DNA of 62,832 nucleotides, the filler included, from Hausera hauseri (lineage: Eukaryota): the NCBI GenBank assembly GCA_046269625.1. It is 10 parts of 10 records of this genome, joined end to end, with 100 filler letters (N's around TTAATTAATTAA, not from the genome) between each part and the next. Parts side by side here need not be neighbours in the genome. Positions count along the whole stretch, not along the records: positions 1 to 8,218 come from JBJURY010724324.1; 9 more parts are not named here. One strand, written 5' to 3'. The notes under the pieces were generated by a model. That model saw only the letters and a program-made list of their open reading frames with translations. It ran no database searches and was not told the origin of the DNA. This document shows, in pieces, positions 1 to 56,530 of the stretch (position 1 is the stretch's first letter; every line of letters begins with the position of its first letter). Both the position numbers and the translations under genes were made by a program.

Positions 1-252
1 AACTGACCGTGATAAGAAATCGGCTATTAAATTGTCTGTGCCAGAAATATGGCGAATTTTAAAGTTGAATGTTGACAAATATGATATATGGCGTTCTTGT
101 CGCAGTGACGGTTGTTTCATGTTCATTACGCAAACGAGAGGTTTGTGGTCCGTTTGGATAGTGAAGGAACCAGCGATAAGCAAATGTGAAAAATGTTTCA
201 GAGCTAAAACTGTAGCCAAGAGTTCTCTATCGAAGATAGAATAACGGCATTC

Positions 253-1053
253 TTATAGCTGCAGCTTGCGTGAAAAGAATTCTAACGGCTCATTTATCCC
301 TTGAGATATTTGATGAAGAACTGCTCCTACTGCTGTAGTTGATGCATCGTTTGTTAAAATTAGGTCAGCATCAGGTTTTGAATAAGCTAAAATCTCGACT
401 GTTTTGAGCTTGGCGCGGAGTTCATCAAACTGGTTAACAAGTTCTGGTGTCCAATATATGAGCTTTTTCTTCGGCCCTGCTCCTAGTTGAACGAAAGGAG
501 CAGTTAACTGGCTACAGTGTGGGACGTATTTATGGACAAAATGTAAAGTTCCAAAGAAACTACGCATATCAATAGTGGTTTTTGGTAGCTTGATGTTTTG
601 TAACTGATGGATTCTATCAGGCTGTGGACTGTGACCATCAGGTGTGATGACTTGGCCAAGAAAATTGACTTTTTTTTGAAAGGAACACTTAGAAAAGTTC
701 ACTTGCAAATTGTAGTTATGTAAACGTTGAAAAACTAGTCTGAGGTGTTCTTTGTGTTGTTTGGGCAATGCCCATGCGACTAGTATATCATCAGTGTACG
801 GATATACAAACAGCAAGCCTGAAAGAACTGAATCAATGTGCCGTTGGAAAGTTTGTACTGCGTTTTTTAAGCCGAACGGCATGAATGCGTATTCTAAAAG
901 ACCAAAAGACGTTATAATGGGCGTTTTTGGGATGTATTCTGGTGCTACCGGTATTTGGTGGTAGGCTTTTTTGAGATCTATGGTAAAATAAATCGTAGTT
1001 TTGTGTAAAGAATGCAATATATCCTTAATCAAAGGTAGGAGACAAGCGTCCAT
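253..1053 (-). pseudogene. pol: Ty3/gypsy reverse transcriptase plus RNase H N-terminus (pol fragment)
   Basis: DLKKAYHQIP, MPFGLKNAVQTFQR, YTDDIL (YxDD), KCSF, FLG, DAS..AVGAVL; frame breaks at both ends. Confidence 0.93.
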
Positions 1054-1992
1054 GGTAGTGACGTTATTTAGTTGGCGATAACCGCCGCATGGACGGAATG
1101 TTCCATCTTTTTTCTCTCTGACGACGTGAATTGGTGATGCCCATGGTGATTTTGATCGTCTTATTATTCCAGATTTCTCGAGTGCGGAGAATTCCGCTTG
1201 GACTGCCTGTCGACGGCGTGGTGAAAGTGAGCGGAGTTTTTGCCAAACGGGCCTGGGATTTTCTGTGATGATATGGTGAAACGTTGTGTTAGCCGATCAA
1301 AATGCTGGATCTTTCTTAATTGTATGGAAATAAGATTTGACTAAATATTGTTGCATTTCATAGCTAAGCGTAGTACAGGTTGTTGTCGTCACGGCAGTGG
1401 CTTGGGAGGACTTAGTATGAAAAATGGTAGAAATCGGGCCGCTTAAATCGTACTTCAACAGAAATTTGGGACTATTTATATTAGTCTTAATAAGGCTTTT
1501 ATTCACATTGGTTGATGGATTTTTTAATATTGATTTTATAGTCGAGATAGGTTGCATGATTGGTTGGTTATTTGTAGAGGTCGGTTTTGTTGAACTGCTT
1601 TTAATGATCTGACGTTGTCTACAATATACAAGGAGGTTGTAGAAAGATAAGAAATCAGATCCAAGTATTAAATATTGTGTGTTGTCAACGACGAATGTCC
1701 AATTGAAAATGTCGGAGAGTTGTGGTAAAGTGAATGAAACCTGGGATGTACCGAAAATGCGTAATGCTTGGCCGTTAGCTGTATACTATTTTGTGTTAGA
1801 AGGAGATAGATAGTGTTTTGATGGATGGTGGTAATAGCGAAACATCTGCACCAGAGTCAATTACGAAGTTGATTAATTGATTGGGTTCAAAAGTAAAAGA
1901 TGCTTTTAATGTAAAAACGGCATAAGAACGGCTATCATGATGAAAACGTTTGCCTGTGCTAGCATGTGCCAAAATATCTGGCGGCTTTATGA

Positions 1993-1999
1993 GTTTTTT
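1993..1999 (-). promoter_or_regulatory. Putative -1 ribosomal frameshift heptamer A AAA AAC at the gag/pol junction (second copy at 31113-31119)
   Basis: Both family A copies end gag with AAAAAAC just before TAA, followed by a conserved GCCGCCAGA..TT(T/C)GGCA stem-forming segment. Confidence 0.7.
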
Positions 2000-3284
2000 G
2001 GTGGTACGGGATTTAAGTCGTTGGGAAAGGTAGGTCGTGGTGAATTCGATTGGTTAACGAAAGTGCAACTTGTAACGTAGTTGTGCTTCAGAATTGAATT
2101 TGTTATGGTAAACGCAGATAATGTCGGGTCGTTTGAAATGGGGCGAATAAAATCTGCAGTCTAAGCAGCATTTAGTGGAGTTGTCTTTAAATTTGGTGTG
2201 GTAGTAACACACCATTGATCATGTAGGTGACCTTTCATGCCTTGAATTTTTAGATGAAGTGCGGCTATGATTCTTATCAAAACGATTCCGTCTAGGCATG
2301 GACAAAGCTTCAATTTTTGACGTGAGCTCAGAAATTGCTTGGTGAATGTTGGCGTTTTCAGAACGTAAAGAATTTATCTGTGCGTTGAGATTAGATATGT
2401 CGTTGGCTTGTTGAGTTATTGGTGCTTGTAGAGTAGCGGCTACTAATGGGGCTATATGTGCATGTAATATTTCGTGGCTTTTGTCAGCCAGTTGTGCTAG
2501 TTTTTGTAGTAACGATGTGTCCTCTACTATGGTCAACAGTGCACGTATATCTATACGTAAAAATTGCGGAAATATCTGTGTAGTAAATCCGCGTTGTTTG
2601 CTTGATTAACGCCAAGAGTACTCAATTGAGTTAGGGAGGTTTAAAGAAATTCTGAGGGTTTCAATGTGCTTATGGTATTGTCATTAAAGTATTTGTGGAT
2701 AATGTTAGCCAGTGATTGTTCCGTGATTTTTATAGTCGAGTTAAAAGTGTTGTGTATGAGTCACTATTTTGGAAAATTTCCGATAAATTGGGCAGCTGAG
2801 AAATGCAAGAGTATAAGCAAACTGTTTGCTTTAAGAAACGAATCGACAATATTATTTGACTTCAACCAAGCCGCATGAAAGTCCAACCACGTCCTGCTGG
2901 AGTGTTGCTTGTCGACCAAGTATTCTATACAAGGTAGATTTACAGTAGACTACGGGGTAGAGGTGAATTTAACGGTACACTTATAGTAGGGATGTCGGCA
3001 AAATCTTGTTGGTCCTTAGAGGATGCTTTTGGAACAGATCCACATAAGAGACGGTAGTGTACACTCAGTATAAACGTTGAAGATAAGTGGGTGTAACCTC
3101 TTAGTGTCGGATTGTCGGAAAAAATCCATTATAACTAAGGCGAAAGTTAACGAGGGTTATTTGTCGCCGTAATATGTCCTACAGTTTTGCAATTGTTGTT
3201 GATTTGTGTATGTAGGTTTATGTATGCTTATTTTCGAATAATAAGACCAGCGGAACGAAAGTGTCACATAAGTTGGGTGTACAA

Positions 3285-3430
3285 TGTGGTGCATAAGACA
3301 CGGGCGCATTGTATTGACTGATCCTTCTAACCGGGAAGATCAGGGCAGCTGTAGAGCAGTGTTACTTTGAACAGTGTCGGCAACACCGACTGGTGTGTTT
3401 GCATGTGGAACAAATCCGGTCCGAGGTACA
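3285..3430 (-). repeat. Candidate short 5' LTR of family A copy 1
   Basis: 146 bp; minus strand runs TGTACC...GCACCACA, and the end is the inverse of the TGTGGTGC LTR start at 27362; no clean PBS follows. Confidence 0.3.
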
Positions 3431-3445
3431 TTTCAAATAATCTGA

Positions 3446-4179
3446 TCAAAACGGCAGTTCTTGATTTTGGGTAATTGATGCCTGGGCAGCTTCGGTTTCT
3501 TCATGTCGACTGGAAATGTTGTATAGTGCACAAATACACGGTTCCAGAATGTCGCCTGGATAGTAATTATTTGAAATTTTATTTGCTGTATTCGAGTTGA
3601 TTAAATCTAGATTCCATTCAATTGTTTTCAAGTGTCTCAACTCCTCCTAACGCAAACAAAGTATTTTTTTATACTGATTGTTACAATTTAGATTCGAAAG
3701 AATTCCAGCAGCACATGTAACAACATTGGTATCGATGTGATAATCTTGTTTATGAACCTGATTCGATGCATTTAATAAAACTTCGATTAAAATTTTCAGT
3801 ACATTATCGAAATTAAACCGAGTAGCTGTATCGGTCAATTTTCTTAATGTCCATAAACAATTATGCAAAAATCGATGGCTGAATTGTGGAGATAAATTGG
3901 AATTTTCATTTGAATTTTGTGGATATGCCGGAACAGTAATCCTTTTCTTAATTGTATAATACAAAATATTGGTCAGCGCATCCATTCCACCTTCACGAAT
4001 GATAACCGGTTTATTAACAAAATAAACGCTAAGAACTTTCAAAACTCGTATTTCTGTCCAGTAATTTTTCATAATCATACGCCATTGTTGCTTCATTAAT
4101 AACTACTGCGTCATCTTCATCTTTGATGAGTTTTACCAAATCTGGAATTGCGCTTTTTACTTCAACTTTGTCGATATAT
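3446..4179 (-). pseudogene. Beta-catenin/armadillo fragment: intronless, frameshifted, internally deleted
   Basis: SAIPDLVKLIKDED..VV (ARM1), YEKLL/RVLKVLSV..NKP.I..GGM.AL, NCLWTLR.L.D.AT, NVVTCAAGILSNL.CNN, DILEPCICAL..ISSRH.E.E.AQ, all matching beta-catenin ARM repeats. Confidence 0.9.
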
Positions 4180-4198
4180 AATCCCACTTCTGACACCA
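4180..4198 (-). promoter_or_regulatory. tRNA-Leu primer binding site (TGGTGTCAGAAGTGGGATT)
   Basis: Plus strand AATCCCACTTCTGACACCA equals the 3' 19 nt (including CCA) of the usual metazoan tRNA-Leu(CAA); preceded on minus by a TGTTAC...GTAAAACA segment (4203-4280). Confidence 0.85.
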
Positions 4199-4741
4199 TT
4201 GATGTTTTACTGACATTGGGAATAAATCCGCGTACGATAAATTCCATAATTGAAAGAAAAAGGAATGAATGCGCGTAACAAAACTTTATTGACTAATTCA
4301 AATGTTAATCGATTTTTCTATTAATTAGTAAAACAATAAAAATCTTCCGACGTCATTTACACGTCAACCCTCAGCAAAATAAATTAACAATAAAAAACGT
4401 CGCACGATTGAAAAAATCCTATGACTACAAATTTTGAACAACAAAAATATTTCGCAGCAAATATCACCAAAGTGCAGAAATTACACAACAGAACAAATAC
4501 GCTAAAAATCGTCAAAAATGTGAATAAACGCCGTGAAAACCATATCTTTGATAAATCAACCGTATTTCAATATAGAATCTTCGTCAATCATCAAATTAAA
4601 TTCTGTAATGATAATAATGATAAAAAGAAGAAAAGAATTGAAAGGTATGGTCCGAACGATCTCAAAGATAAACTGTACAAAATATACCCGTCAAAAATCA
4701 CAGCCGTTGTAAACTATAACATTGAAGATTTAACTTTTCTT

Positions 4742-5060
4742 TTATGAAAGAGAGCTGGAGAGAGCATCGACAGCATCAAAAAATTCCTCCTCGCCAATAG
4801 TACAATCTGGTCCTTCATCCAAATCCGGATTTCCAATAATTAACATTTTACTTGACAAATTCGATCCCAGTTTAGGTATGATAATAGGCACGTTTGAAGT
4901 TGAATTAGGTGTAGCACTGTTATCCTTCGTTTCAGCAAGTTTATTCTGCAATGACGATACTTCTTGAAGAACACATCGATATTTTTCCTCGATTTTGCGA
5001 CGTCTTTCTATTTCCCTATCCAGACGCCTCCAAGCATCTTCGCCTTGTTGATAGGATTTG
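4742..5060 (-). pseudogene. Ceramide transfer protein (CERT/COL4A3BP) middle-region fragment with FFAT motif
   Basis: EDAW-RRLDREIERRRKIEEKY coiled coil, then [22 protein letters not shown] (cf. CERT [22 protein letters not shown]); no PH or START domain. Confidence 0.8.
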
Positions 5061-5845
5061 TCGGTGAAAAAGAATAGCTGTATACGGGCCAGGCGTAACT
5101 GATTGTGGAGTACGAGCGATTGCGAATGAAGACGAACATCATCTCTGAGTCGATTATTTCATCATGTTTGGCAGAAATGGACGGCTGGTAAAATTATCCA
5201 GATATGGAATTTCTTAAATTCTATCCAGAATCTGCTACTGTTGAAGTTTTGGGGACCTTCACTTCTCTATTTAATCGTAGAGCTGATTTTCTAATATGAG
5301 GTGAATTGTGGTGGCGCTCGAGTCCGCGGCACCACGGGTACCACTTTGGTATGGGTTGCCGCAATAAATCTATTTCTTTTCCTGTTAACGGGTCAATCAT
5401 AAATGATAGTTTGAATTTAACCAAATCGGTTCGTCCGATATCTGTTTCGTCTTTGGCAAAAATGTCAAGATACTCAAAGATAAGATCAGAGAAGTTTTTA
5501 GATATTCATGTGATAGGTTTTTCTTGGCTTTTGCGAGAGTAATATTAAGTACATCGTCATTTTCCTTTCCTTGGCTTGAGGTGGCTGAGATTTTACTATT
5601 TTATTCTTCATGACAAGAAGTTTCAAGGGCCCGTCCAAGTTTCATCTTTGTAAATAATGTGACAATTTTGGGGTCGGTTTTAAAATTTCTATGGGTATAG
5701 TTCCTCCGACTACGTTAACGCAATAATGTGGCAGCAAGTCCGTTCTGAAGGGTTTTTGTTACGAACTCGATTACACTATTATCTTGAAATATCGTTCTAG
5801 CATGTATGACTATCCTAGAATTTGGTGGTATTTTCTTAGCATGTC

Positions 5846-6295
5846 CTACCCATATGTCTCCTTTATTGTAGGTAAGAGGAATATTTTCGTTATTAAGACA
5901 AATTGATCCAGATTGTAAATTTTATGTACACCCTGTAATTTCCGTAAGACATTCATCCGTAGGATGCATCGTGGATCTAATGTGGTCATTACATCGAAAG
6001 TTATTTTGATTCTTCGTCCGCAAATCCATAATTCGCATTTCGAATATCCGTAAGGTTTGTTACATTGTTGGAAGACTGAAATGGTACCAAGCGAATCTTT
6101 GGTGGCTAATTTTATTCGATATTGTAAATTTTCCGGAATTGCCTGTTTCGCTATTAATTCAACGTTTGCTGCCGTATCTACCATTGTGTTAAGATCAAAA
6201 GTACCGAAATGAACTGTATTGTGAGGTCGGTTATATCTTAGTAATTTGAGAAATGTTAGGACATCGTTATGATCATCTATGTGAGGTTCCATCAA
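5846..6295 (-). pseudogene. Retropepsin-like aspartic protease of family B
   Basis: TMVDTAANVELI (D-T-G-A-like active site) and PRCILRMNVL (degenerate ILG.D.L). Confidence 0.8.
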
Positions 6296-6755
6296 AGAAT
6301 AACTGGCTGAACAGTATCTAGTTGTTCCGTTAGTTAATATAACCGTTAGATTTTGCAGTGATTATGTATCATTTTCTGACCCTTTCGGTTTTTCCATATT
6401 TCGTGTAATGATAGACTGACGTATTTCTTCCTGAGAGTATGTTGGTAAGCTACGTAATTTTACTTAATCTTCTCTCTTCGCGTATGGATCCATTAAATCA
6501 GTTGGATTAGGGAATTTACAAATATGCATTTTTTTACTCTCATATAGTGAAGCAGGTAATTGGTACTTTTCCTGTCTCTTTGGTATTCATAAACTTGAAT
6601 TTCCTTCTCTTGTCCATAGGGATCCCGGTAGTATGGTAGTGTCCAGGAGCGGTATTGTCGTCCGAGCTTGATGAAGTATCCTTTGGGAATTGTTTCTCTG
6701 ACTTATAGTCAACATGTTTTTCTAATTTACCTCGCCATTATTTTTCCTGGTAGGC

Positions 6756-8218
6756 TTAAATTAATTTGCCAATTGGGGAAAATAAAGCGCCTACTATGTT
6801 CAACGATAATCCTGTTAGTTTGTAGATCTCGTAGACATTCAGTACAGAGTTGATACAAACCTTTAAAGTTTGTATAATGAACTGTATTACCAGAAACCCT
6901 GAGGCTACTTGGCCAAATCTTAAAAATCCTCCTGACATTTTATACCATAAGTTTGAGACAATTTTGCTATAGGCATCTGGCGTCCATAATCAATCCCATT
7001 TTTCTTCTCCTGCTGTGTCATCAATTACTCGATGTATTCCTTTATTTACTATTTGTTCACTCTGTCTCGGATATGCCAAAAACCTCACAAATGAATCAAT
7101 CTCTTTCTTACTACATAATGCTGACTTGGATACGTTGGTCAATATATTGGTTTCGATTGCGTGTTTCAGATTTGTCGTGGTTAATTTCTTTCGTTTTTCT
7201 TTGACTCTATCGCGATCCCGTAATCTAACCCAAAGATCTTGATTATCATACTTGATAAATGGTTTATTTAGTGATGAACAATTTTGGATTTCAGTAGGTA
7301 TTGTGTGCGATGCCAAAAGTATTCTAGTAAGTGGCTGGACGTATCGAATTTTTTCGTTATATTTTACGGGTATCTCAGAGTAACATGGAGTGCCCGTAAT
7401 TAAGGGTGGTTCTAAACGTTTACATTTGTATAATCATAGAACTTCTCCTAGGACTCGGCCTTATATCTCTTCACCAAAGGGAAGGGTTATTGTAATCATT
7501 TCTGGGTTAGATGCATAGATGTCAAACGGTTTCTTAAAGTTTCGAAGTTAACTTTACAAAAGTTTTAAACTGTTTCAGAATATATTTCTTCAATTGTTTT
7601 ATTGGTCAGATAGAACATAAAATCGTCTTTGTTCGCAATATAATCAGCAATATTTACTAACTGAGCCTTATTAGTAGGTGAATTTTCAGCACCTTTAATT
7701 TCCTTTTGCAATAAAAATTATTTGTCGTAATTCGTACTAAATACTTGTTTTCCACACTTTGTAATCGCATCTTGTTGTATAAATTTGACTCCTCCTTTAA
7801 TGTCCTTGGATATCACAATTTTAGGAGTTTTTACTTCAGGAATAACTTGGATATTAGTATGTTCAAAATTGGTCTCATAGTGCCGTGCGTAAAGTTTTCC
7901 CGTAGTTACGTTAAATTCTCCTTTTCTTATTTGTACTAATGTACAATCATAATTTGTTGGTGGTTTCCAAAGTATTGCGGATGTTTGCAGATTGTAGAAG
8001 GATGCGTCCATCATTGTATTTGTACTAGTCTCAAAAATATAAGTATTGTTTTTAATTTCAACTTCGGATTGGTCGTGTACCACAATATTTGCTTCGACAC
8101 CTTTACAGGTATCAAAATTTCATCCTATACAATTATCTTTTTCATCTTTATAACCAGCGATCCATTTTTCTTGCTGGGTTATTTGTCCTTTTATTGTAGT
8201 AAATAAAATATCTCCCCA
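6756..8218 (-). pseudogene. env: Chuvirus-like (class III, gB-type) envelope glycoprotein, C-terminal half with membrane anchor
   Basis: Manual translation through stops: KCGKQVFSTNY, GEVL*LYKCK..PCYSEIPVKYN..YVQPLTRILL..C, SKSALCSKKEIDSFVRFLAYPR, then hydrophobic FLRFGQVASGFLVIQFIIQTLKVCINSVLNVYEIYKLTGLSLNIVGALF; same motif series as recalled chuvirus G proteins. Confidence 0.8.
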
Positions 8219-8318: not shown

Positions 8319-11300
8319 TTTTCATGGTGTAATCTTTCATGGTGTTGCCTTCCTTGTCGTGGTCTTCCATGGTGTGGTCTTCCTTGTCGTGGTCTTTCAT
8401 GGTGTGGTCTATTATGGTGTGATCTTCCATGGTGTGGTCTTTCATGTTGTGTTATTTCATCGTGTGGTCTTTCATGGTGTGGTCTTCCATGTTTTGGTCT
8501 TATATGGTGTGGTCTTTCATTATGTTGTCTTTTATGGTGTGGTCTCCCATGGTATGGTCTTTCATGGTGTGGTCTTCCATGGTATAATCTTACATATTAT
8601 GGTCTTCCATGGTGTGGTCTATCATGGTGAGGTCTTCCATGGTTTGGTCTTCCATGGTGTGGGCTTTCTTGTCGTGTTCTTCCATGGTGTGATCTTCTAT
8701 GGTGTGGTCTATCATGGTGTTGTCTTTCATGGCATGGTCTTCCATGGTATCGTCTTCCTTGTCGTAGTCTTCCATGGTGTGGTCTTCCATGATGTGGCTT
8801 TCAATGTCGTGGTCTTATGGTGTGGTCTTCCATTGTTTGGTATTACATGGTGTGGGCTTTCATGTCGTGGTTTTCCGTGGTGTGGTATTTCATTGTGTGG
8901 TCTTTCATTGTGTGGTCTTCCGTGGTGTGGTCTTCCATAGTGTATTCTATCATGGTGTGGAATTTCATGGTATGTTCTTCCATGGTATAGTCTTCCTTGT
9001 CGTGGTCTTCCATGGTGTGGTCTTCCATGGTGTGGCCTTCGAATTATGGTTCTTCATCATGTGAACTTTCATGGTGCAATCTTTGATTATGTGGTTTTAC
9101 ATGGTGTGATGTTCCATGGTGTGGTCTTTCATGTTGTGTTCTTTCATGGTGTGGTCTTCCATGGTGTGGTCTTCCGTGGTGTAATCTTTCATGGTGTTGT
9201 CTTCCTTGTCGTGGTCTTCCATGGTGTGGTTTTCCTTGTCGTGGTCTTTCAAGGTGTGGTCTTCCATGGTGTGGTTTTCCATGCCGTGGTCTTCCATGGT
9301 ATTGTCTTTCATGGTGTGGTCTTTCATGGTATGGTCTTACATGTTATGGTCTTCCTTGTCGTCGTGTTCCATGGTGTGGCCTTCCATGCCGTGGTCTTTC
9401 ATGGTATGGTCTTTCATGGTGTGGTATTTTATAGTATGGTCTTACATGGTATGGTCTTGCTTCTCGTGGTCGTCCATCGTGTGGACTTTCATGGTGTAGT
9501 CTTTCATTGTGTGGTCTTCCATGGTGTGGTCTATCATGGTGTGGTATTTCATGGTGTGGTCTTCCATGGTATGGTCTTCCTTGTCGTGGTCTTCCATGGT
9601 GTGGCCTTCCATGGTGTGGCCTTCCATGTCATGGTTTTACATGATGTAATATTTCATGGTTTGGTCTTTCATTGTGTGGTTTTACATGGTGTGGTTTTTC
9701 ATGGTGTAATCTTTCATGGTGTTGCCTTCCTTGTCGTGGTCTTCCATGGTGTGGTCTTCCTTGTCGTGGTCTATCATGGTGTTGTCTGCCATGGTGTGGT
9801 CTTCCATGGTGTGGTTTTCATGTTGTGTTCTTTCATGGTGTGGTCTTCCATGGTGTGGTCTTCCATCGTGTAATCTTTCATGGTGTTGCCTTTCTTGTCG
9901 TGTTCTTCCATGGTGCGGTCTTCCTTGTCGTGGTCTTTCATGGTGTGGTCTATCATGGTGTGATCTTCCATGGTGTGGTCTTTCATGTTGTGTTATTTCA
10001 TGGTGTGGTCTTCCAAGGTGTGGTCTTCCTTGAAGTGGTCGTTCATGGTGTTGTCTTCCATGGTGTGGTCTTTTATGCCGTGGTCTTCCGTGGTATGGTC
10101 TTTCATGGTGTGAACTTTCATGGTATGATCTTACATGGTATGGTCTTTTTTGTCGTGGTGTTCCATGATGTGGTCTTTCATGGTGTAATCTTTCATGGTA
10201 TGGTTTTACATGGTATGGTCTTCCTTGGTGTGGTCTTCCAAGGTGTGGTCTTCCATGGTGTAATCTTTCATAATGTTGCCTTCCTTGTCGTGGTCTTCCA
10301 TGGTGTGGTCTTTCATTGTATGGTCTTCCTTAGTGTCGTCTTTCATGGTGTCGTTTTCCTTGGTGGGGTCTTTTATGGTATGGTATAGCATGGTGTGGTC
10401 TTTCTTGTCGTTGTCTTACATGGTGTGGCCTTCCATGGTGTGGTCTTTCATTGTGTGGTATTCCATGGTGTGGCCTTCCATGGTGTGGTCTTCCATGGTG
10501 TGGGATTCCATGTTGTGGTCTTCCATGGTGTGGCCTTTCATGTTGTTTTCTTTCATAGTGTGGTCTTCCTTGTCGTGGTCTTCCATGGTGTGGTCTTCCT
10601 TGTCGTGGTTTTTCAAGGTGTGGTTTTCCATGGTGTGGTTTTCCATGCCGTGGTCTTCCAAGGTATGGTCTTTCATGGTGTGGTCTTTCATGGTGTTGTC
10701 TTACATGTTATGGTCTTCCTTGTCGTCGTGTTCCATGGTGTGGTCTTCCATGCCGTGGTCTTTCATGGTATGGTCTTCATGGTGTGGTATTTTATAGTAT
10801 GGTCTTACATGGTATGGTCTTCCTTGTGAGGGTCTTCCATAGTGTGGCCTTCCATGGTGTGGCCTTCTATGTCATGGTCTTACATGATGTAATATTTCAT
10901 GGATTGGTCTTTCATTGTGTGGTTTTACATCGTATGGTCTTCCATGGTGTGGTTTTCGTGCTGTGGTCTCTCATGGAGTGGATTACCATGGTGTGGTCTT
11001 TTATGGTATGGTATTCCATGGTGTGGTATTCCTTCTCGATGTCTTCCATGGTATGGTCTTCGATGTCGTGGTGTTCCATGGTGTGACCTTCCATGTCGTG
11101 GTCTTACATGGTGTGTTTTTTCATGGTGTGGTCTTTCCTGATGTGGTCTTTCATGTTGTGGTCTTCCTTGTCGTTGTTTTCCATGGTATGGTTTTCCATG
11201 TCGTGTTGTTCCATGGTGTGGGTTTCCATGTCGTGGTCTTACATGGTGTGGTCTGTCATGGCGTGGTCTGTCATAGCGTGGTCTTCAGTCGTCTGAACTG

Positions 11301-13443
11301 CCATGTTGTGGTCTTCGATGGCGTGGTCTTTCACGGTGTGGTCTTTCATAGTGTGGTTTTCCATGCCGCGGTCTTCCATGGTATGGTCTTTCCTGGTGTG
11401 GTCTTTCATGGTATGGTCTTACATGTTATGGTCTTCCTTGTCGTCGTGTTCCATGGTGTGGTCTTCCATGCCGAGGTCTTTCATGGTNNNNNNNNNNNNN
11501 NNNNNNNNNNNNNNNNNNNNNNNNNNNNNNNNNNNNNNNNNNNNNNNNNNNNNNNNNNNNNNNNNNNNNNNNNNNNNNNNNNNNNNNTCGTTGTCTTCCA
11601 TGGTGTGGCCTTCCATGGTGTGGTCTTTCATTGTGTGGTATTCCATGGTGTGGCCTTCCATGTTCTTTTCTTTCATAGTGTGGTCTTCCATGGTGTGGGA
11701 TTCCATGTTGTGGTCTTCCATGGTGTGGCCTTTCATGTTGTTGTCTTCCATGGTGTGGCCTTCCATGGTGTGGTCTTTCATAGTGTGGTCTTTCATGGTA
11801 TGGTCTTCCTTGTCGTGGTCTTCCATGGTGTGGCCTTCCATGGTGTGGTATTTCGTGGTGTGGTTTTTAATGGTATGATCTTCCATGGCGTGGTCTTCCT
11901 TGTCGTTGTCTTTCATGGTGTGGCCTTCCATGGTGTGGTCTTTCATTGTGTGGTATTCCATGGTGTGTTCTTCCATGGCCTTGTCTTCCATGGTGTGGTC
12001 TTCCATGGTGTGATTTTCATGCTGTGGTTTTTCATGGTGTGGTTTTCCTTGGTGGGGTATTTTATTATATGGTATTCCATGCTGTGGTGTTCCTTGTCGT
12101 AGTCTTCCATGTTCTGGTCCTCCATGTCTTGGTCTTCCATGGTGTGGCCTTCCATGTCGTGTTCTTAAATGGTGTAGTCTTTCATGGCGTGGTCTTTATT
12201 TGTGTGGTCTTCTATGGTGTGTTCTTGCATGCTGTCGTCTTTCATGGTGTGGTCTTTCATGATGTGGTCTTACATGCTTTGTTCTTATATGGTGTAGTCT
12301 TTCATTGTGTGGTCTTCCATGGTGTGGTCTTTTATGGTGTGGTCTTTCATGGTGTTGTCTTCCATGCTGTGGTCTCTAGTTTTGTGGTCCTTCATCGTGT
12401 GGTCTTCCATGTTGTGGTCTTCGGTGTTGTTGATTTTCGTGTAGTGGCATTTCAGGGCGTGGTCTTTCATAATTTTGTCTTTCATGGTGTGGTCTTTCAT
12501 GGCGTGCTTTTCAATCATGTGAACTGCCATGTTGTCTTCTTCAATGGGGTGGTCTTTCGTGGTGTGTTCTTCCATGCTGTGGTCTTTCATGGTGTGGTCT
12601 TTCATAGTGTGGTCTTCCATGGTGTGGGATTCCTTGTTGTGATATTCGATGGCGTAGTCTTTCATTGTTTGGTCTTTCATTGTGTGGTCTTCCATGGTGT
12701 AGTATATCGTGATGAGGTCTTCCATGGTTTGGTCTTCCATGGCGTGGCCTTCCATGTCGTGGTCTTCCGTGGTGTGGTCTTTCATCGTGTGGTCTTTCAT
12801 TGTGTGGTCTTCCATGGTGTGGTCTTCCATGGTGTGTTCTCTCATGGTGTGGTATTTCATGGTATGGTCTTCCATGGTATGGTCTTCCTTGTCGTGGTCT
12901 TTCATGGTGTGGTCTTCCTTATCGTGGTCTTTCATTGTGTGGTCTATCATTGTGTGATCATTCATGGTGTGGTCTTTCATGTCGTGTTATTTCTTGGTGT
13001 GGTCTTCCATGGTGTGGTCTTCCGTAATGTAATCTTTTATGGCGTTGTCTTCCTTGTTGTGGTCTTCCATGGTGTAGTATTTCATGGTGTGGTTATTCAT
13101 TGTGTGTTCTTCCTTGGTGTGGTCTTCCATGATGTGGTATTCCATGCCGTGGTCTTCCATGGTATCGTCTTTCATGGTGTGGACTTTCATGGTATGGTTT
13201 TACATGGTATGGTCTTCCTTGGTGTGGTCTTCCATGATGTGGTCTTCCATGGTTGTGTTATTTCTTGGTGTGGTCTTCCATGGTGTGGTCTTCCGTAATG
13301 TAATCTTTTATGGCGTTGTCTTCCTTGTCGTGGTCTTCCATGGTGTAGTATTTCATGGTGTGGTCTTTCATTGTGTGTTCTTCCTTGGTGTGGTCTTCCA
13401 TGATGTGGTATTCCATGCCGTGGTCTTCCATGGTATCGTCTTT
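8319..13443. repeat. 15-bp minisatellite, consensus CATGGTGTGGTCTT(C/T), roughly 330 diverged copies
   Basis: The whole contig is this tandem unit; it generates spurious (VVFHG)n and (MEDHT)n ORFs. Confidence 0.97.
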
Positions 13444-33459: not shown

Positions 33460-34335
33460 CAAATGGGATAATCTGGACATTTCAATATGGCATAACATTC
33501 TCTCCAACACGGGCGATAATCGCGGCAAATCAACGAACTGAACGCAATATCGAAAACTTCCCTATCATTTTTGCCCAAGGCCTGTCGAGCAACGAGTCTC
33601 AATGCTTCTGCCTCGTTGTAGCGATTATTCTGCGACTCGTCGGCACAAATATCGACCGGTTTCTACGATTACGTCGACTTGCCGATAGAGCGATTTGTTC
33701 GCCTGTAGACAATTGGCCAACAACTGAAATTTATGCGGCCATATTCCCCACTCGACAGGGACAATCGAACATTTATATTTGTTAAGAAATTCGCAACATT
33801 TCATCAGACGGATCTCGCCATCGATATCTGATGAGATGTCCTCCAATAAACTAATACTGAATTTCGCCAATTGGAAATTGCTATCGCGACTTGATACGCT
33901 CAAATTTACGTAATTACGAACTACCGCACAGATGTACCGTGATAATTCATAGAAATTGAGCAGTGTGCTGACATGGGAGTTTGTTGTGTGACAGGTCCAT
34001 AAATTCTGCTGCCAATATAATTTTCTGTCGATCAGCTGACTCGATGAGCGACTGCAACACATTAACGTACAGCAATTTCGGATGAATGCCGTTCAGTACA
34101 GTCGATACACAATTCCAGATCGGTGAGCATCGTCTTGATGAGATTGTGATTGACAACTGCGAATGTCTGAACGCATTGCAGTACGACGTTCGTAAGCAAA
34201 TGCTCGACAACATCACAATTCATCCGTTTGTCATGAATGAACCTCAAACTCTTTTTCGATCGATATTTGTCCAACACCGTCAACACTGTTACATACTTGT
34301 TCAATGTCGTTCCTATAACCTGTAGATTATTGTGT
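33460..34335 (-). pseudogene. NBAS (Sec39-domain) gene fragment, intronless and frameshifted
   Basis: LQSLIESADRQKIILAAEFM; VVRNYVNLSVSSRDSNFQLAKFSISLL..IDGEIRLMKCCEFLNKYKCSIVPV..LANCLQANKSLYRQ; VARQAL..D..L...Y..CW..C follow recalled NBAS motifs (REYFNSS..DSCMDLARCCLQLI..EELDLI..LEEFGVKILPL). Confidence 0.7.
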
Positions 34336-34339
34336 CCGC

Positions 34340-34786
34340 TCAGTGGAAGTCCACAGACCTTCAAATTTTCATCCTCGTTGTTTATATAAACAAATTTTAA
34401 TATTTCCAGCCAAAGAAAATTTCCTTCATCATCAAATTGCCGTTTTGCTATTTCTGATGTTATGTCGATTAATTTCTTTCTAGTAAGAGCTGATTTATCT
34501 GTGAGAATCAACTGTAAAAGTTGAGTTTTGATTGCATTTTGTGATTCAAACGGTAAATTTTGAAAAGCTTCTTCATAATTAACGTCTAACAGCCTTCTAC
34601 ATGAAACCCCGGTAAATACCCTGTTCTTTTGACTTTGCGGATCATTGCTTTCTGATATGACAGTTAATAAATAACTAAACTTAAGTTGACATTGAGTTGT
34701 TTCGTATATTTGCTCGGTATTTGACCGAATATCATTTTCACGACTTTGCAAACTTTCCAAGACTTAAAATTTTGTAAATCTGCCAT
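34340..34786 (-). pseudogene. Importin-5 (karyopherin beta-3/Kap121) N-terminal HEAT repeats, fragment
   Basis: LQSRENDIRSNTEQIYE, RRLL..YEEAFQNLP.E.QNAIKTQLL, RKKLIDITSEIAK.QFDDEGNFLW.EILKF match the IPO5 N-terminus; frameshift near the start. Confidence 0.85.
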
Positions 34787-35081
34787 TGTGTAGGATGTTT
34801 CAAAGCGAATTAAAATTTTAAATATTATGAAAATAAACGTGTATGGAGTATTCATAAAAAAACTGTTCGCTTTGAGTTGGTTTAATAAAGCCTGTTAACC
34901 AGTGAGTGTTGTAACCGGTGGGTGTTGTAACATTAAAGCAGCTGCTGTCACAGGTGTTTGACATCTGACTAAATTCCTCTTTTCTGAACGAGGTTGATGC
35001 GTTAATATTATTGTACTTTTCGGGCATATTTAAAATCAAAAGAATTTGGCCGAATCTGATCATTGTGGTTTGATTGGTATA

Positions 35082-42980: not shown

Positions 42981-45834
42981 GNNNNNNNNNNNNNNNNNNN
43001 NNNNNNNNNNNNNNNNNNNNNNNNNTTAATTAATTAANNNNNNNNNNNNNNNNNNNNNNNNNNNNNNNNNNNNNNNNNNNNTGATATAAGCATGATTGTC
43101 GAGATGCAGGATTTACGAAGATATGTAAGGAATATGGGCGAATCTAATAACCCACAAGTAATAAAGGCCAGAAAGGAATACGAAGAAAAGCTACATCAAA
43201 TGGAAGTTTATCATGGGTTAAGAGAACCAAAAAGGGAATACGAAAAAGCAATAGCACCCAAGAGTACTAACATGGCCAGAAAGAAAAATCTAGATCAAGC
43301 AGCGAAAAAAGAGAAGGAAGAAGAACCGACTACGCCTTCAAGTGTAGATTTGGACGCAGATACCGAGGTCGTGCCTCCAAATAAAGACAAAACAACAGAC
43401 GAGGTTGAAAGTGAATTCACTGGGCCATTAATACTTAAGATAACCAAGAATAGAGGTAGGAGCCCTTCTCTTAGGAGAAGGTCAAGAACTCGTTCACGGT
43501 CATCTATAAAAAGGATGTAGAAAAGGAGGAAGACTTCACCATCACTTTAAGAGATGAAACAGAGTTAAAAACTCCTGTTAACGCAAGACGTTCCTGAAAC
43601 AACAAACATTCCAAATATCGATGAAATTAATGAAATATGTCCGTTGCCGCCTAATGAAGAGGAGTCAAAAGAGGAAAAGTCTATTAAAACTACGAAGATT
43701 AGAAAATCTTGGGAAAATGCGAATGAGCTAACAGAAATAAGAGACACTCTAAACGATCCAGAAAGACTACCTGAAAGCTTGCAAAAGCTTCAGCAAATGA
43801 GCAAGCGGTTGGACATCTCAAGAAAATAACAATTCATAGAAAAGTTATATAAGAAGCTTAAAACTGGCCTCCAGAAGGGGGAAGAAGACATACTGTATGA
43901 AATGCACGAAACGCCGCAAGACTTGATAAAAACTTGGCAAAATAAATTAGAACTGTGGACAATGAGTGATATTGATTTTACGAAAATATGGTGGAATAAA
44001 AACGAACCGTTTCTCGACAAAGTTAATCAAGCGCAAGGATTGTTAAACATACTAAAGAGTAAACCAAAACTAAAACGTGTGAAACGTAATTTAGAAGGAT
44101 TGCTACATGAGATCGAAGAAGCAATGATTTCTTATATTCACAATAAGCCAGTATACGAACTTACCGATGCCGACTTAGAAATATTGAGTATAGCCCAAAT
44201 CGACATTTTTTAATAGAAATGTGCAGTTTAATAAAGGATAAACCGTGGAAAAACTTAGATTTAAAAACACGTATTGAAAGAAAAAATGAAATACGAGCCA
44301 AAATTAACGACTTAAGGATCGGTGTAGTCCACTCTGAAAATATAGAAGTACAAAGAATAATACGCGCTTGCCTTCTTGAACTAGATGAATATAAAGAAGA
44401 GTTCAACTACGTGAAACAAATCATAGAATTTGTACGAGGACCAGATCATGAACTGGAAGAAGCTTCTGCAGCATTAGACGAGATAATATACTTGAAACTA
44501 ACAATATCTAAACAATTGGAGAAGTGGATAGATTTGTTACTTTCCGTAGCCGAAGTGATTAACGAACGATTAAGGGAATTCACCGTGGTTGAGCCTATAA
44601 TGAAACACCAATTAGAAGAAATGCTAATAGATATCGGTACGATGGAAGATGAAACGAAATTGCGAATTAAATTCGAATCATTTCGAGAACTTGAGTTTAT
44701 GAGCCAGGATCAAAATCAAACAATACTGACAGAGATATATAATATGATAGAAGAGAAGGACTTCTACAGAAAAGAAACAAGTTAAGTGATCTTCAGCGAA
44801 GTTTAGTAAACATCCGTTGGGAAGGAATACAGAACCTAATACAGAAACCACTAAAGGAAATCTCTGTACAGGAGATAGAAACATTAGAGGTATGTAATGA
44901 CCACCGGATTGCTCTCGCGCAAACACTGCAATATATACAGAACCCAGTTGAATGGTGACCAGGCTTTTACTTACATTGCCACTCCGAACTAACCGAAATT
45001 AGAAATGATCCTCAACTGACGAGCGAGGAAGCCAAGTTCGTAACTAGGCTGATGGACGCAATAGATCCGGATGCCCAAGTGTTAAAACAAACGTACAAAT
45101 TAATCTCATTATTAACAGAAATGGCGGAAATTGACTAAATAGTAGCGAAAAGACTAACAAATCGGATGCGTGTGATAAAAAAACCGTTTACGCTCCGAGA
45201 AAAGACAACGCGAATTAAACGAATTACTAAGAGAAACGGAAATTTATAAGAATAAATATTCCCTTACGGAATCGGAAATTAATAGAAAGATGGAATTTAC
45301 ACGAAGGTGGCAGAGATAGAATCGCAGAAGTGACTAGTTACCAAGAAAAAGCCTGGATACAACCAGAGGAAATGTGTCGATTAATAAAGCTGATAAAACA
45401 AGCTTGGGGAAACGGTGATGGATTTAGGGTATTCATCATGAAAACTCTACAACCGCAATTAAGCGAATTACGCGAAGAGTCCAGGTCGGACATGCGGCAC
45501 TAATGAACTATGAGTTACCTGACGCAGACAATGAAGCCGAATGGATGAATATCTCCAAGATCTAACCGAGCAATGTCAGAGAACACAAATACATATTTAT
45601 AAATCACCTACTGGTGCACAGAAGACGAAAATCGACGTACAAATGCTAATCGATCCATCACTAAATGAAAAGGAATTGAGTGGTATGTTCAAAGTAAACA
45701 TAAGCGAAGATAAATTAAGGAAATTGATTCTAACTCTGACTAAGTTATCAAGTTAAAATACCGCATGCAATGCCGTACCTAAACTCTAAATAAGAGAATA
45801 CGCTAAAATATTGAAAAATAAACCGGAAGCGTAA

Positions 45835-46060
45835 ATTAAAGTGAAAGTATTGTCTAAAGGAATGGATGATGAGGAATTTGAATGCACTACCTATATTACT
45901 GTTGGGGACATAAAGCAACGGACAATAGATAAGAATGGTAGAGAAGGAGTCAATTACCGACTCTATTTCAGAGGTAGAATATTAGATGAGTCAGAGTTCT
46001 TAATAGACGTAGGAATAATACCACTCGAAGCAAATCGGATAATAGCAATAATTACTAGTG
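45835..46060 (+). CDS. Ubiquitin-like domain within the family B polyprotein
   Basis: TVGDIKQRTIDKNGREGVNYRLYFRGRILDESEFLIDVGI aligns without gaps to ubiquitin [40 protein letters not shown]; no C-terminal GG. Confidence 0.7.
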
Positions 46061-46754
46061 AGCAAACCAAATACAAAGCCACAAGGAGGGCACATACAGA
46101 ACACTGTGTTGGAAAAATTATGGGAATTCAGGACGTTGCAATGTACTTTGAATACTTACCGACGATGAAGACAAACTGCAATATGATAGAAACTTGGTCT
46201 CGCTGAGTAAAACCTTACCACCAGTGAAACCAAAACGGCCAGTCGGAAGACCAAGAAAAATAAAAGAAGCAGACTATAATGCAGATTTGATTAGGGAATT
46301 AAGACAACTATCAGTACCCATTCCAAGTTCAGATAATGAAGAATTAATCGAATTAATGAAAGACTTAATAAGCATAGTTAACTATACCGGACTACAAGGT
46401 GACACACTGTCCGAAAAAGAAAGACTAATATTTAATGCAGCTCGGACCATGAAAACTTCTCCATTTAAATGATCTAAAAGCACCCTCCCTGACGAAACAG
46501 AGATTGAGAGAATTATGACAGACAATACGACGGAAGAATTAAGGAATGTCTTGGTATATTTTACGGTGAGAACTAACCCTCCCCGAGAAAACGAATTTGA
46601 AAAGGCAATTAGATTAGCTAGAAAAGCTGCGAGAAGGGTTCTCAAAGAAATAAAGTGGACTAAATTGTTTGCAAAAGAGGAAAATGCAAAAGGGACTAAT
46701 AAGTTAGAAAATATGATACGAAATGTCTCTTTAAATAGAGGCAATGAATCCAAC

Positions 46755-47594
46755 TGGTTAGTCAATCTGCTAACAATAATGATGTTACTAAAACAGTTAG
46801 GAGCAGTCACTATATACGACTGTGATAAATTCAAGATGGGTCAAAAATATTCCCTAATGGATCTGGAAACATGTGAAGATGCCCGACCACACAAGTTAGA
46901 GACAAGAGAGAAGAACTACTTCTTATACCAACAACAAGAGCTGATATCGTTAGACGGAATTGAATGCATGTTGCGACAATCTCGCAGTATCTTCCACTTT
47001 GGATTAATACACGGACATTGTTCAATAATCAAACCGACAACTGCAAACAGGCTAGAGACACTGAAAGAGTACAACGGGACAATATTGAATTAGAAATGCA
47101 AGCTGGTAATATAATTAGAGCATACAGAGTTGTAGCCGGAAGGTTAGACATGCATACCGGACACTGTAGTGGAGCTGAATATGATACTGGCAAAGGATTA
47201 GAACAGAATGTAGTAGTTGTGGATTTTTACGAATCAGAAATGAGAACACAGAAAGTAATGTTTCATAGCGTCACCAAGTTATATACGGAGAACCAAAAAT
47301 GCCATTTACAAGATGGAACTTGTGTTTTTCGGAGCTCAGTTATAATATGGGTACCTCCCTCAGGAAGAAGCTGTAATTTTATTAAAATTAAAGAACTTAA
47401 GTTTAATGAGACCACCGGGAAAAGATATGTGGATAAATTAGATACCAATTCAAGGACGTGCGAAGATGTATTAGAACATTCTACGCCCACAATATTAATT
47501 TGCGATAAACATGGACTAAAATTTATCAAGAAGGAAATGATGTCACGTTGTGATGTGGTGATGTTTGCTAATAACTACGAAGCGTTCTTCGTAG
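46755..47594 (+). pseudogene. env: Chuvirus-like envelope glycoprotein, N-terminal half with internal signal peptide
   Basis: WLVNLLTIMMLLKQLGA|VTIYDC..YSLMDLETC..YQQ..ECMLRQSRSIFHFGLIHGH, GHCSGAEY..NVVV, C...DGTC..IIW.P..C, RCDVVMFANNY; starts in frame inside ORF 46515-47093. Confidence 0.8.
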
Positions 47595-52158: not shown

Positions 52159-55100
52159 TTACGGAGGAGCGCGTAGTAAACTCGCATTCTTTTTCATCCA
52201 TCCATTCAGACGACACTTTTACATTTATTGTTACCTCGGGTTTAGCCCTTAAGATTTTAGAATATTTTTATTAAAAGTTTTGGCACAGTACTATAAATCG
52301 TATTTTCATTATATAGTTTAGAGTAGGAACAAGTTGTCTAAACCTATTTTCAGTAATATTTAGGTTAATTAGTTCAATTAAATCTCTTTCCGTTAACCCT
52401 GAATTCCCGATTCTGTAGGTACATTTCCGTTTTATACAGGTGTACTGGAATTTTCGGATTTTCGGCAACTATTGCATTTAAATATGCATCCAATTCTAGA
52501 TCGTTCTCACTTTTTGGCGGTCGGTAGTCAATTATTGGCGTAACTGGATGTCAGATTGCGTTTGCATTCCGTACTGTTTCTCTTACTTCACGTAGCTTTT
52601 GTTGCATTTTGATCATTTGTGTTGTCTGGAAACAACGTCCAATGCCGGAAACATGATGCAACAATGTTAACAACTGAGAGTTCGTCTGCCTGTATAAATC
52701 CTTATTTTGGTAATAGGTTAATTCGGAGGTTACATCGCGTTGCCATCTTTGTACGAATCCTGATTTATTGGCTATTTCTGATTTTGTAGGAGCGTATTTA
52801 TTTCTATAGACTTCCAATTCTTCAGTTAACTCATTTATTTTTGTTTTCCTTTGGTCGGTACGAATTTGAGTTTCCTGAGTGTGACGTATTGGACTTTGTA
52901 GTTGTCTCATTTTCTGCTCAGTGATTTTTGCCATTTCAACTAACAACAGCGTTAATTGGCTTATTTCGTTTAAAATTTCGGAGTCGGGATCGATTTCTTC
53001 GATTAATTTCTTTATGAAGCTAGTTTTCTCCTCAGTGAATTGTTTTCTCTCGATGATCTTCCATTGTCTCTATTAATTCAGTATGCCGTTTTTGATCTGT
53101 CCCAGATATCCAATTAGTTGAATCCTGCAGGAATTTCAACACATCTGTAATAGAGTTTTCGTAGTCTGAACAGATCTCTAAAATCTTCAGTTCTTGTGTT
53201 GTGATCTCGTTTATGGGTTTCTCCGTCAAATACCGGATTCCATCTAAACGAATATTTTTAATTCTCGAGTAGAGATCACATGTCATATATTGTTTCGACT
53301 TGAAATCCGCTTCTTCAATCATTTTGTATATCTCGTTTAATATTGCCATTTCTTCGTTTTTATTCATAAATTTTAATTGTCTTAATTCGTTTAGATGCAT
53401 TCGAATATCTGCTTCTGCTCTCATAGTATTAAGATTCTGCAAAATTTCGTTCATCTCTTTCTTTAACTCAAGTTGGACGTGCGGTATTCTTCGATACGAT
53501 TTCGCATTCTGGTGTTAAACTCCATAATAAGTCGGACCATTTTTTCAACTGATTGGCTATAACTGGTTTAACCATTTTTGCTCTCCAGCATTTTATAGCA
53601 GTCTTTCATCTCGTCGTCTGGGCCTGGTATAAATCATATGATATACTTTGCGTAATTAAATTCGTTTTTATACTTCTTAAGTTCTAAAATATAGGTTTTG
53701 ATTATATTTACCGTCTTGTTATTTAGATTCAATATTAAATTTCTCAATTTATAAATTTCTGACAATTTATCGTTTTCTCATTTAACTCGACCTTCGATAT
53801 CTTCGTTTTGTCTTGGCTCAGTAATTACAACTTTAATCATTTCTATCAGAAGGAGAATATCTGCATGATCGATGCCCATTATTTCTAAATCAATTTCATT
53901 ACGTAAATTGAATGGTTTTTCCTTCATATAGCTGACTATATAATGTCTAATTCTAGTCATCAGTCCCTGCAAGTTGCTTTAGTTTTGGGTGGGCTTCTAG
54001 AGCAGTCAGTAATTCCTGGGCTTTGATTATTTTCTCTTCGGTTGTGCTTTCCGTTTTGGCCCAGAACTCTGGGGCTCTAATTGCACTCTTTACCCATAGG
54101 TTTAATTTATATTTCCCTTTTTCTATTAATTCCCGGGGTAATTCTTCAGATTCATCTGAACCGATTATCTCGTCCATTTTTCCATCATTGTATGACATTA
54201 GCTTTTTAAAAATCCGCTCGGCGAATTGTTATTCATTACCAGAAGTATCTATTTATTCGGCTATGCGGTGAAGTTTTTCTGAGTTTTGCCGCATCGTTTC
54301 TGGGTTTATGGGGGCATATCTGATTTCTTTTAATTTGTCAGAATTTTTCAATCTCCATTTCTTTTTATCAAACTTCGATTCGATCGGGTTCATCCTCGCT
54401 TATAGGTAATGGACATGTCTCGTTTATCTCGCTAACGAATTCGATTGATCATTCTGCCATCATTGAAATATTAAGACTGAGTTCTACGTCGGTTTTTGCA
54501 GCGATTTCAGTCTTTTGTTTTCTCTAATTTTTCTTTAGTCATTGGGGATCGTAAACGATTTTTACATTTCCGTTTTATCGACAAGCTGCGACCTATTTTT
54601 CGTGATTTTAAGTATTAACGGATGCATAAATTCATTTTCATCATCAACTTCTAACCGTGTTCACTGTCTCGACTGTATATTCAGATTCTGTATCTAAGTC
54701 TACTTCAATTGACGTGTTCGGTTCATCCGGTTTATCCTGGTTCTTTTATTACTGGAACATTCTTTTTTCGTGCCATGTCTGTTCGTTTTGGTGCTATAGC
54801 ATGTTCGTAATCTGTTTGTGACTCGGTTAGCCCATGGTACACTTCCATCAATCGTAGTTTATTTTCATATTCTTTTCTAGCTTTTAAAACTTGTGGGTTA
54901 TTAATCTCGCCTTATATAATAACTCTAAATCCTGTATTTCAATAACCATGCTTGTATCACCTCGAGTGCCATAAATCGCTTCCAAGTTCTCGTTAGTCTT
55001 AATCATACTAGCTTTGCTAGGCTCGGTGAATGAAACGCTACGTGGATTTGGACGTGACATTGCGATTGTAACCTTACCGCAGGTATAGCAAATTAAATTA

Positions 55101-56530
55101 CCGCTTCTGCTGACTCTGTCGGCCGTCGTCATTTAAAGGTGACTTTGACCTGCTCATATTTCTGTTATACTGATTCGACGGACCTTGTCTACTATCTCCA
55201 TTGTGTCTACAATCATTGTTTCGGTTATCGTTATACCGGTTTCCGTTAAAGCTTGTATAACTCTTGATTCCTATCTGGGCTAAAATTTGACTTATTAGCT
55301 GAATTATTCGCAGTTAGGTCATTGCTGAGATTTCTGTTATTATAGCGGTTACTTCTATAATCATTACTGGCGTTCTGGTTTCTGCTTACATGGTTTCTAT
55401 TATTGTTGAATCGTCTATTATCCATACCACGGTTATCGTTCCAGTTTCTATCATTACGATCATTATACCTGTCGATCCTATCATTTTGTTTAGCATATTT
55501 ATGTAGTCCAATTTCTAGGTCTTGAGCTAACTGCAAGGTTTTCTCAAAGTTCTCTGGTCGGGCTAATATTAACTGTTTCACTAAATCCCTAGACTAGATA
55601 CCGTTTATTAATTGCGTCATCATGACGTCTAAATCAGGAGGACTTGCCTTTTCTGCGGCATCGCAATCTGCGTCGGTTTTAGCCTTAGCTACATTAGTTA
55701 TTCTTAATGTACTTACGTAACTATTTGCAAGTTTCATCAATGCAAATGCAAACTGGGTTACCGATTCACCCTTTTGTTGCGTTCTATTTTGAAATGCGAT
55801 ACATTTCTGCTGTGGTATTACTGTCGGTAATAGTTTACGATTTAAAGCTCCTACCAAGGAGGCCCAAGATTTCTTCTCAACATTGGTGAGTTCACTATAG
55901 GCATCAGCAGCTAAATTTTTCGAATATAATGAGACGTTTAATCATTACCTCAGGGGTAAGACTGGCACCTTCTGCATGCAATTTATAGGTTCTCAAAAAT
56001 TCATTCAATCAGTCCGGGTCGCCATCATACGCCGGCAGATTCACAGAATAAAATGTAAAGATATCTAGTTTCTGCGCTACTGCTTGATTATCTGCTGTCA
56101 TATTATTGTTTACGTTATTTGATGTGTTGACGTTACGAGATTTATTTCTCGGAATTTGGAACTCTTTATCAGTGTTTAAAACTATACTATTTAGATTAGT
56201 TACGGATAAAGAACATTTATCGATTACCTTATTCATACTATATAATTTGTTTCTTGTTTCTCATTGGTCGAAATTTTCCTTGCCGTTTAAAATTGGTTTT
56301 AAACTTTCGTTTAAGTATTCGTTCTCTTTAAATTGATTTACTTGTGGGGTTTTTCTTATATCCCAAAATTTAAAGTTCTCAAGACTATATTTCAATTATT
56401 CGATGTGAATGGCACTGATCAGCGGTGTATAATTATTTAACTCTCTAAGTCGAGTTTAACGAGGCACAAACTGTCCTGCTAGGGTCGCCAAATGTTATAG
56501 TTACTGTGGGCTATATATGTGGGCACCACA
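52159..56530 (-). mobile_element. Family B copy 3: LTR end - PBS - gag - zinc knuckle - unknown helical region up to the start of the UBL
   Basis: gag LPAYDGDP..QQKGESVTQFAFALMKLA..QLINGI..PENFEKTLQLAQ (55246-56100); degenerate CCHC LICYTCGK..IA (~55060-55100); then colinear homology with 43082-45900. Confidence 0.85.
56473..56490 (-). promoter_or_regulatory. tRNA-Arg-type primer binding site TGGCGACCCTAGCAGGAC
   Basis: Follows ...TATAACA + TT; resembles the 412/mdg1-type PBS TGGCGACCGTGACAGGAC; about 0.4 kb upstream of gag. Confidence 0.75.

Follow-up and report, generated by a model that had tools for sequence, protein, structure and literature searches.

A chuvirus/gB-type env ahead of pol in decayed Ty3/gypsy elements of Hausera hauseri, and the single polyprotein they likely encoded

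At the end of a short contig from Hausera hauseri (GCA_046269625.1), a decayed fusion-glycoprotein frame leads into a retropepsin and the beginning of a Ty3/gypsy pol. The usual order in retroviruses is gag-pol-env, and the locus raises the question of whether an env placed before pol belongs to the element and was made with it as one polyprotein, or came to lie there by chance. We analysed a window of 62,832 nucleotides, which consists of ten unrelated contigs joined by N44-TTAATTAATTAA-N44 spacers, with nothing readable across a spacer. The main finding comes from the minus strand at the end of contig 1-8218, and two other pieces come from contigs 43082-47594 and 52159-58065 (Table 1). We consider it very probable that these decayed pieces represent three Ty3/gypsy LTR-retroelement families with a chuvirus/gB-type env between gag and protease, likely within one polyprotein as in the planarian element Burro and in GAG-ENV-POL elements; for this polyprotein we predict a passage through the ER membrane, set out below. 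The element copies in the window are dead.

Table 1. Features of the three element families, with positions counted along the whole window
Feature	Position	Strand	Evidence or remark
First family: chuvirus/gB-type (putative class III) env	6756..8218	-	ectodomain 5' end cut by contig end; several stops, one frame change near 7520
First family: predicted env membrane anchor	6840..6929	-	hydropathy 1.5-1.8; same motif in 10 relatives shown
First family: second, weaker hydrophobic stretch past anchor (surface helix or second pass)	6753..6809	-	hydropathy 1.47; also in relatives
First family: polar linker, env anchor to protease	6240..6755	-	four TAA stops, one frame change
First family: retropepsin-type aspartic protease	5924..6235	-	DTA at active-site position; Pfam RVP E 0.0016, below cut-off
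First family: protease-to-RT spacer, several frame changes	5500..5920	-	position where Burro has dUTPase-like part
First family: gypsy pol pre-RT motif	5340..5499	-	5499-5401 matches relatives' profile, iE 1.6e-5
Second family: long helical/charged spacer X	43082..45830	+	57% nt to 54959-52173; no known domain
Second family: weak ubiquitin-like domain	45835..46017	+	PF00240 E 3.5e-4, below cut-off
Second family: AT-hook-like motif	46230..46262	+	9/11 residues identical to P0008/P0155 pre-env motif
Second family: predicted internal env signal peptide	46755..46805	+	hydrophobic core, small residues at (-3,-1), as in 12/13 relatives
Second family: env N-terminal part, cut by contig end	46806..47594	+	tblastn of intact relatives, E down to 6e-25; PF24664 E 0.0075
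Third family: primer-binding-site-like motif	56473..56490	-	~390 nt before gag ATG (56101)
Third family: gag with Asn/Arg-rich tail, CCHC knuckle broken by frame change	55045..56101	-	relatives' gag profile
Third family: spacer X up to start of ubiquitin-like domain	52159..54960	-	colinear with 43082-45903

Env, linker and protease on the first contig

The order read on the minus strand of contig 1-8218 is env, membrane anchor, a linker of ~500 nt, retropepsin and pre-RT motif; the RT core is absent from this contig according to reading frames and a Pfam scan, and the element breaks off at ~5340. The region 5340-8218 is far more open than shuffled sequence (cost 20 versus 47.1 ± 4.2, with 0 of 200 shuffles as low); on its opposite strand 6 of 200 shuffles were as open, and a non-coding control was at chance. 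The same statistic shows each of the three pieces to be a decayed frame that greatly exceeds shuffled sequence in openness, though it is broken. Past the break-off point there is an open frame of 138 codons that resembles a coiled coil and lacks a Pfam match (5158-4742, minus strand), followed by broken armadillo-like pieces (4200-3500, minus strand; weak Pfam matches to ARMH2 and HEAT, low run X1 depth) that stand just before a second, ordinary gypsy gag-pol (~3000 to 1). We take these pieces to be of the beta-catenin/armadillo kind.

A reading made from the sequence alone (hereafter the sequence-only reading) had placed a chuvirus/gB-type env with its transmembrane segment at 8218-6756 on the minus strand, and domain searches agree. 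With stops read as X, 8218-7499 matched positions 142-350 of the PF24664 Monjiviricetes_fusion profile (E 8.7e-5, below the cut-off), and 7523-6534 matched positions 355-629 of it (E 1.4e-36), the two matches being colinear; the fusion-glycoprotein assignment thus stands, but the env itself is broken. When a profile of the relatives' env was compared with the PDB, 34 of 36 matches were to herpesvirus gB, all weak (best E 0.0023), and a single-sequence PDB search gave no useful match. The sequence-only reading had also expected a class III fold from structure prediction; an AlphaFold model of the C-terminal half of the window env (pLDDT 75) retrieved gB domain IV as its top Foldseek match (E 0.035, probability 0.97), and a wide fold search with the env model returned only coiled coils or long helices, none at Z 8. 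From these models, a class III fold of the window env is supported, not proven.

The env C-terminal half, searched against 1.84 billion representatives, yielded 274 matches, the best at ~30-31% identity and none above 34%; a word-based homolog search with the same half among longer proteins gave no match. A FastTree of 56 rows places the window env as sister to a group made up of ten env-protease polyproteins, three env proteins preceded by long upstream stretches, and a single fragment (SH 92, under the tool's mark of 95); the window env stands apart from the 40 free-standing glycoproteins sampled, on a long branch (1.77). Not included in the tree were 46 fragments, 31 of the 71 free-standing glycoproteins, six members of clusters and matches covering fewer than 200 query residues.

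The linker had been described as running in frame into the retropepsin and the pre-RT motif. The four TAA stops and the single frame change were found as described, but the pre-RT motif is out of the protease's frame, with several more frame changes between the two. Taken alone, the linker (6756-6240) is marginally more open than shuffles (cost 4 versus 7.6 ± 1.9, 11 of 200 as low), and for 5340-6240 no shuffle of 200 was as open. Pfam gave no match in the protease-to-RT spacer. The distance from anchor to protease, ~249 codons, falls inside the 129-389 aa of the relatives. We would like to note that sequons are present in the env pieces and in the linker alike, and therefore add nothing to the topology argument. 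The protease was further compared with a profile built from what follows env in seven intact relatives; this profile also underlies the pre-RT match in Table 1. The window protease matched this profile with an iE of 1.6e-10 (33.8 bits), against only 2.4 and 7.5 bits for the window's two ordinary gypsy proteases.

This match bears on the possibility that env and protease are chance neighbours, brought together by nested insertion when a chuvirus-like glycoprotein gene that had become endogenous, or another element's 3' env, came to lie beside an unrelated gypsy pol. The contig does carry other nested debris, and run X1 depth is 322 over the linker versus 960-2,400 over env, both of which would suit such an event. 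The window protease nevertheless belongs to the env-polyprotein lineage, and the window env groups with polyprotein envs in the tree. Moreover, a repeat search found no LTR-sized repeat and no target-site repeat within the linker, the marks of nested insertion that the sequence-only reading had named, and the second family has its env behind a ubiquitin-like domain and a spacer that overlaps the gag-bearing third family. Nested insertion is thereby largely refuted, and we regard it as highly improbable. As for run X1 itself, many diverged short contigs lie over the whole element, linker included; they are too short to bridge domains, and among those listed none bridges env and protease. Their summed depth (150-2,760 over 5207-8218 versus 26-61 over 3289-4658) is not a copy number.

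Upstream parts in two further families

Two other diverged copies had been thought to supply the parts upstream of env. The parts are present, but they do not come from copies: contigs 43082-47594 and 52159-58065 can be aligned colinearly along 2,903 nt with an identity of 57%, and the env that the first and second contigs have in common is made up of three tblastx pieces totalling 126 aa (30-40% identity, E 3e-18). The extents agree with the ~2.8 kb of spacer X and ~100 aa of env that had been claimed. Judged by this nucleotide and amino acid divergence, the three pieces are related but different families, not copies of one element, and tiling alone therefore proves little. The env-protease order is read on one contig, gag-spacer-env by overlap of two other families only, and the whole order in the intact relative P0090, described below; none of the window copies by itself carries the complete order or an unbroken frame.

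Spacer X gave no Pfam match of note when nine whole window frames were scanned with X at stops. Between the ubiquitin-like domain and the signal peptide of the second family lies a short motif, presumably an AT-hook, which also occurs in P0009 and P0012. The stretch just before the second-family env, where Burro has a BCL2-like part, has a weak pairwise match to P0005 (E 5e-4, signal peptide included) and no match to a three-sequence profile, and its single-sequence model has a pLDDT of 41. In the third family, gag is recognised weakly by the relatives' gag profile at 55926-55720 (iE 3.5e-4), with no Pfam match. The tRNA match of the primer-binding-site-like motif is our assumption, and its 8-mer alone is not above chance (2 matches versus 0.67 expected). 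A repeat search of the short contigs found no pair of element ends. Next to this motif lies a decayed frame of ~400 codons (57763-56536, minus strand), which gave no Pfam match and was equalled in openness by 14 of 200 shuffles. It stops shortly before the motif and a 38-nt TG...CA stretch, an arrangement that may represent an LTR of very small size or one that foreign coding sequence has come to fill.

Other parts of the window hold unrelated material. A midasin fragment of 1,070 codons with no stop or intron (48848-52057, minus strand) is 35-51% identical to all 120 listed matches, and its tree, in which no named flatworm was included, was uninformative as to the host phylum. Importin-5-like and RhoGAP pieces without introns (34062-35876, minus strand) lie between parts of gypsy elements; a homology search with the importin-like piece gave no match. 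Tandem arrays with 15-bp and 68/136-bp units occupy 8323-13442 and 18011-26190. The midasin, MAP1B-like, RhoGAP and armadillo-like sequences in the window point to an animal host.

Intact relatives and known elements with env before pol

The sequence-only reading had proposed a Ty3/gypsy element with a class III env before pol, one polyprotein, and an internal signal and anchor; its support comes mainly from intact database relatives. Among the top 10 of the 274 env matches, all 8 non-fragment proteins are long, with env embedded in them. A domain scan was applied to 15 of the 19 listed matches over 740 aa, including all 11 over 1,000 aa. In 10 of the 15, one protein carries env and, directly beyond it, protease; five of these ten, P0016 among them, go on into RT. 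The order that the sequence-only reading had set against its own, with env following RT or integrase, was seen in 0 of the 15. The cluster members P0155, P0158 and P0160 show the same env-before-pol layout. Most complete is P0090, with capsid (weak), CCHC, env, protease, RT, RNase H and integrase in one protein of 2,146 aa. Upstream of env, P0028 has a gag match, P0009 has CCHC knuckles and an AT-hook-like motif, and a BCL2-like part is weakly present in P0010 and P0005. Downstream, the order protease-RT-RNase H-integrase is found in P0006, P0012, P0090, P0098, P0155 and P0158. The relatives' pol matches only gypsy-type Pfam families and Ty3, and the best solved matches of the P0006 pol are Ty3 Gag-Pol (E 5e-119) and Ty3 RT (E 1e-90). 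As to Ty3/gypsy traits, a Ty3-type RT is thus present in this relative, and a gag with capsid and CCHC is seen weakly.

Several further observations concern the relatives themselves. Several protease-like domains per polyprotein occur in P0009, P0155 and P0012, with up to 6 stretches in P0155, which also has ankyrin and C2H2 matches, and hydrophobic tails extend past the integrase in several relatives. The P0006 env-pol polyprotein is filed under a Flavobacteriaceae metagenome bin and is likely misbinned animal DNA.

The relatives also help to decide whether the gene order is as described but env and pol had frames of their own, connected by splicing, read-through or programmed frameshifting, with less Pol made. 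The frame change and four stops in the linker could be taken in this way, and the survey of Chary and Hayashi 2026 allowed ENV-POL gaps of up to 2,000 nt, the words fused and polyprotein being absent from its available text (PMC13524379). Env and the protease-to-RT part are, however, broken at a like rate, which marks the breaks as decay; some run X1 copies differ by single-base length changes in the linker; and env and protease share one protein in most of the relatives scanned. We consider separate frames improbable, and for the window families we infer a single frame.

The novelty that had been attached to the env-before-pol layout does not hold, as the layout is already in print for planarian Burro (PMC6431247) and, in the part of the survey available, for GAG-ENV-POL elements of three phyla (PMC13524379). 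Burro/GYPSM1, a planarian giant gypsy, was called the first instance of an in-frame env flanked by gag and pol (Arkhipova and Yushenova 2019, PMC6431247). Its frame of 4,873 aa encodes Gag, CCHC, Smc-like, MATH, ubiquitin/SUMO-like, BCL2-like, env, protease, dUTPase-like and RT parts, and its env matches mononegavirus fusion proteins (PMC6431247). The second family likewise has a ubiquitin-like domain before env, although its match is below the cut-off (Table 1). MATH, BIR, ankyrin and dUTPase-like domains gave no Pfam match in the nine window frames, in which decay lowers sensitivity. From gag start to pre-RT motif the three pieces sum to ~8 kb, pointing to a protein that falls short of Burro's 4,873-5,140 aa. 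Burro is ~30 kb in total length and has a planarian host; the window contigs are under 9 kb.

In the available parts of their paper, Chary and Hayashi 2026 describe GAG-ENV-POL elements with a gB-type env in Nematoda, Bryozoa and Platyhelminthes, which are not monophyletic (PMC13524379), and the supplements list 9 flatworm and 10 bryozoan elements, with cysteine-bridge type C1a in the flatworm ones. Like these errantiviruses, the window families have a Ty3/gypsy pol and a gB-type env, probably of class III, after gag and before pol. In a by-eye comparison with the env rows of that source, the six Schmidtea C1a rows resemble P0005, P0009 and P0012, and the bryozoan rows and 15 nematode C1 rows do not. 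The window copies are decayed and more distant, their env being 31% identical to its best match. The layout itself is thus known in kind, and what is new here is a divergent lineage together with a long spacer, ~1,200 codons, in which no known domain was recognised.

Two other systems invite comparison. In the nematode element NERV, gag-env-pro-pol is said to be one continuous frame. NERV is cited for ENV before POL in a metavirus (Sacco et al. 2022, as cited in the available text of PMC13524379), and the nematode env rows shown in that source are, by eye, unlike the window env. Mosquito BEL/Pao elements with a chuvirus-like glycoprotein (Dezordi et al. 2020, as cited in the same text) share the glycoprotein family, but the pol of the relatives, on which this was tested, is Ty3-like and not BEL/Pao.

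The signal before env and a predicted route through the ER membrane

A signal pattern precedes env in 13 of 14 sequences (the second family and 12 of 13 relatives), against a background of 11%. In this pattern a hydrophobic core is followed by a predicted cleavage site with small residues at -3 and -1, and the conserved Y/F-D-C at which env starts comes three residues later; 110 to 1,362 residues stand upstream. The cleavage site was picked by eye, and 2 of the 14 rows are near-copies. Such an internal signal would fit an ER-threading model. Gag and the spacer would be made in the cytosol, the internal signal sequence would send env to the ER lumen, and signal peptidase would free its N-terminus. 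Transfer would then halt at the env anchor, so that linker, protease, RT, RNase H and integrase would stay in the cytosol, where the retropepsin would release the membrane-tethered enzymes. Gag, Env and Pol would be present 1:1:1 at one membrane, and particles, which may have been infectious, would likely bud there with the class III fusogen. If the second hydrophobic stretch past the anchor crossed the membrane, the enzymes would be luminal, and the model therefore needs a surface helix at that position. In the literature searched, which did not extend to Sacco 2022 and Grohme 2018, no experiment on ER threading was found.

The same architecture could have operated with an env that had no role in extracellular particles, anchoring assembly at the ER or fusing neighbouring host cells for spread within one animal. 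A fixed 1:1:1 ratio and a membrane-tethered Pol are unlike typical retrovirus assembly, which gives this idea some weight. Against it, relatives just 20-30% alike retain the whole ectodomain together with its cysteines, and the available text of PMC13524379 reports conserved gB domains and fusion loops for this env type. We think an env of this restricted kind rather unlikely. An extension of our preferred reading, with env as the fusogen of budding particles, is possible though on balance doubtful: the families may be a deep sister lineage of Burro-like elements and have been true enveloped reverse-transcribing viruses that matured like flaviviruses, possibly in a host group without record. 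Their ER-stitched polyprotein would have been cut by host signal peptidase at the conserved site and by its own protease, with budding by way of a class III fusogen, Gag, Env and Pol at 1:1:1, and, separating Gag from Env, a spacer of 1,200 residues whose fold is not a known one.

The gag-env-pol layout departs from the gag-pol-env rule and would force a membrane-threaded polyprotein, and it has been in print since 2019; what the window contributes to it is three families, all divergent and all dead. Of greater use is a by-product, the signal-peptide pattern and anchor conserved across distant intact relatives, by which ER threading becomes a defined test.
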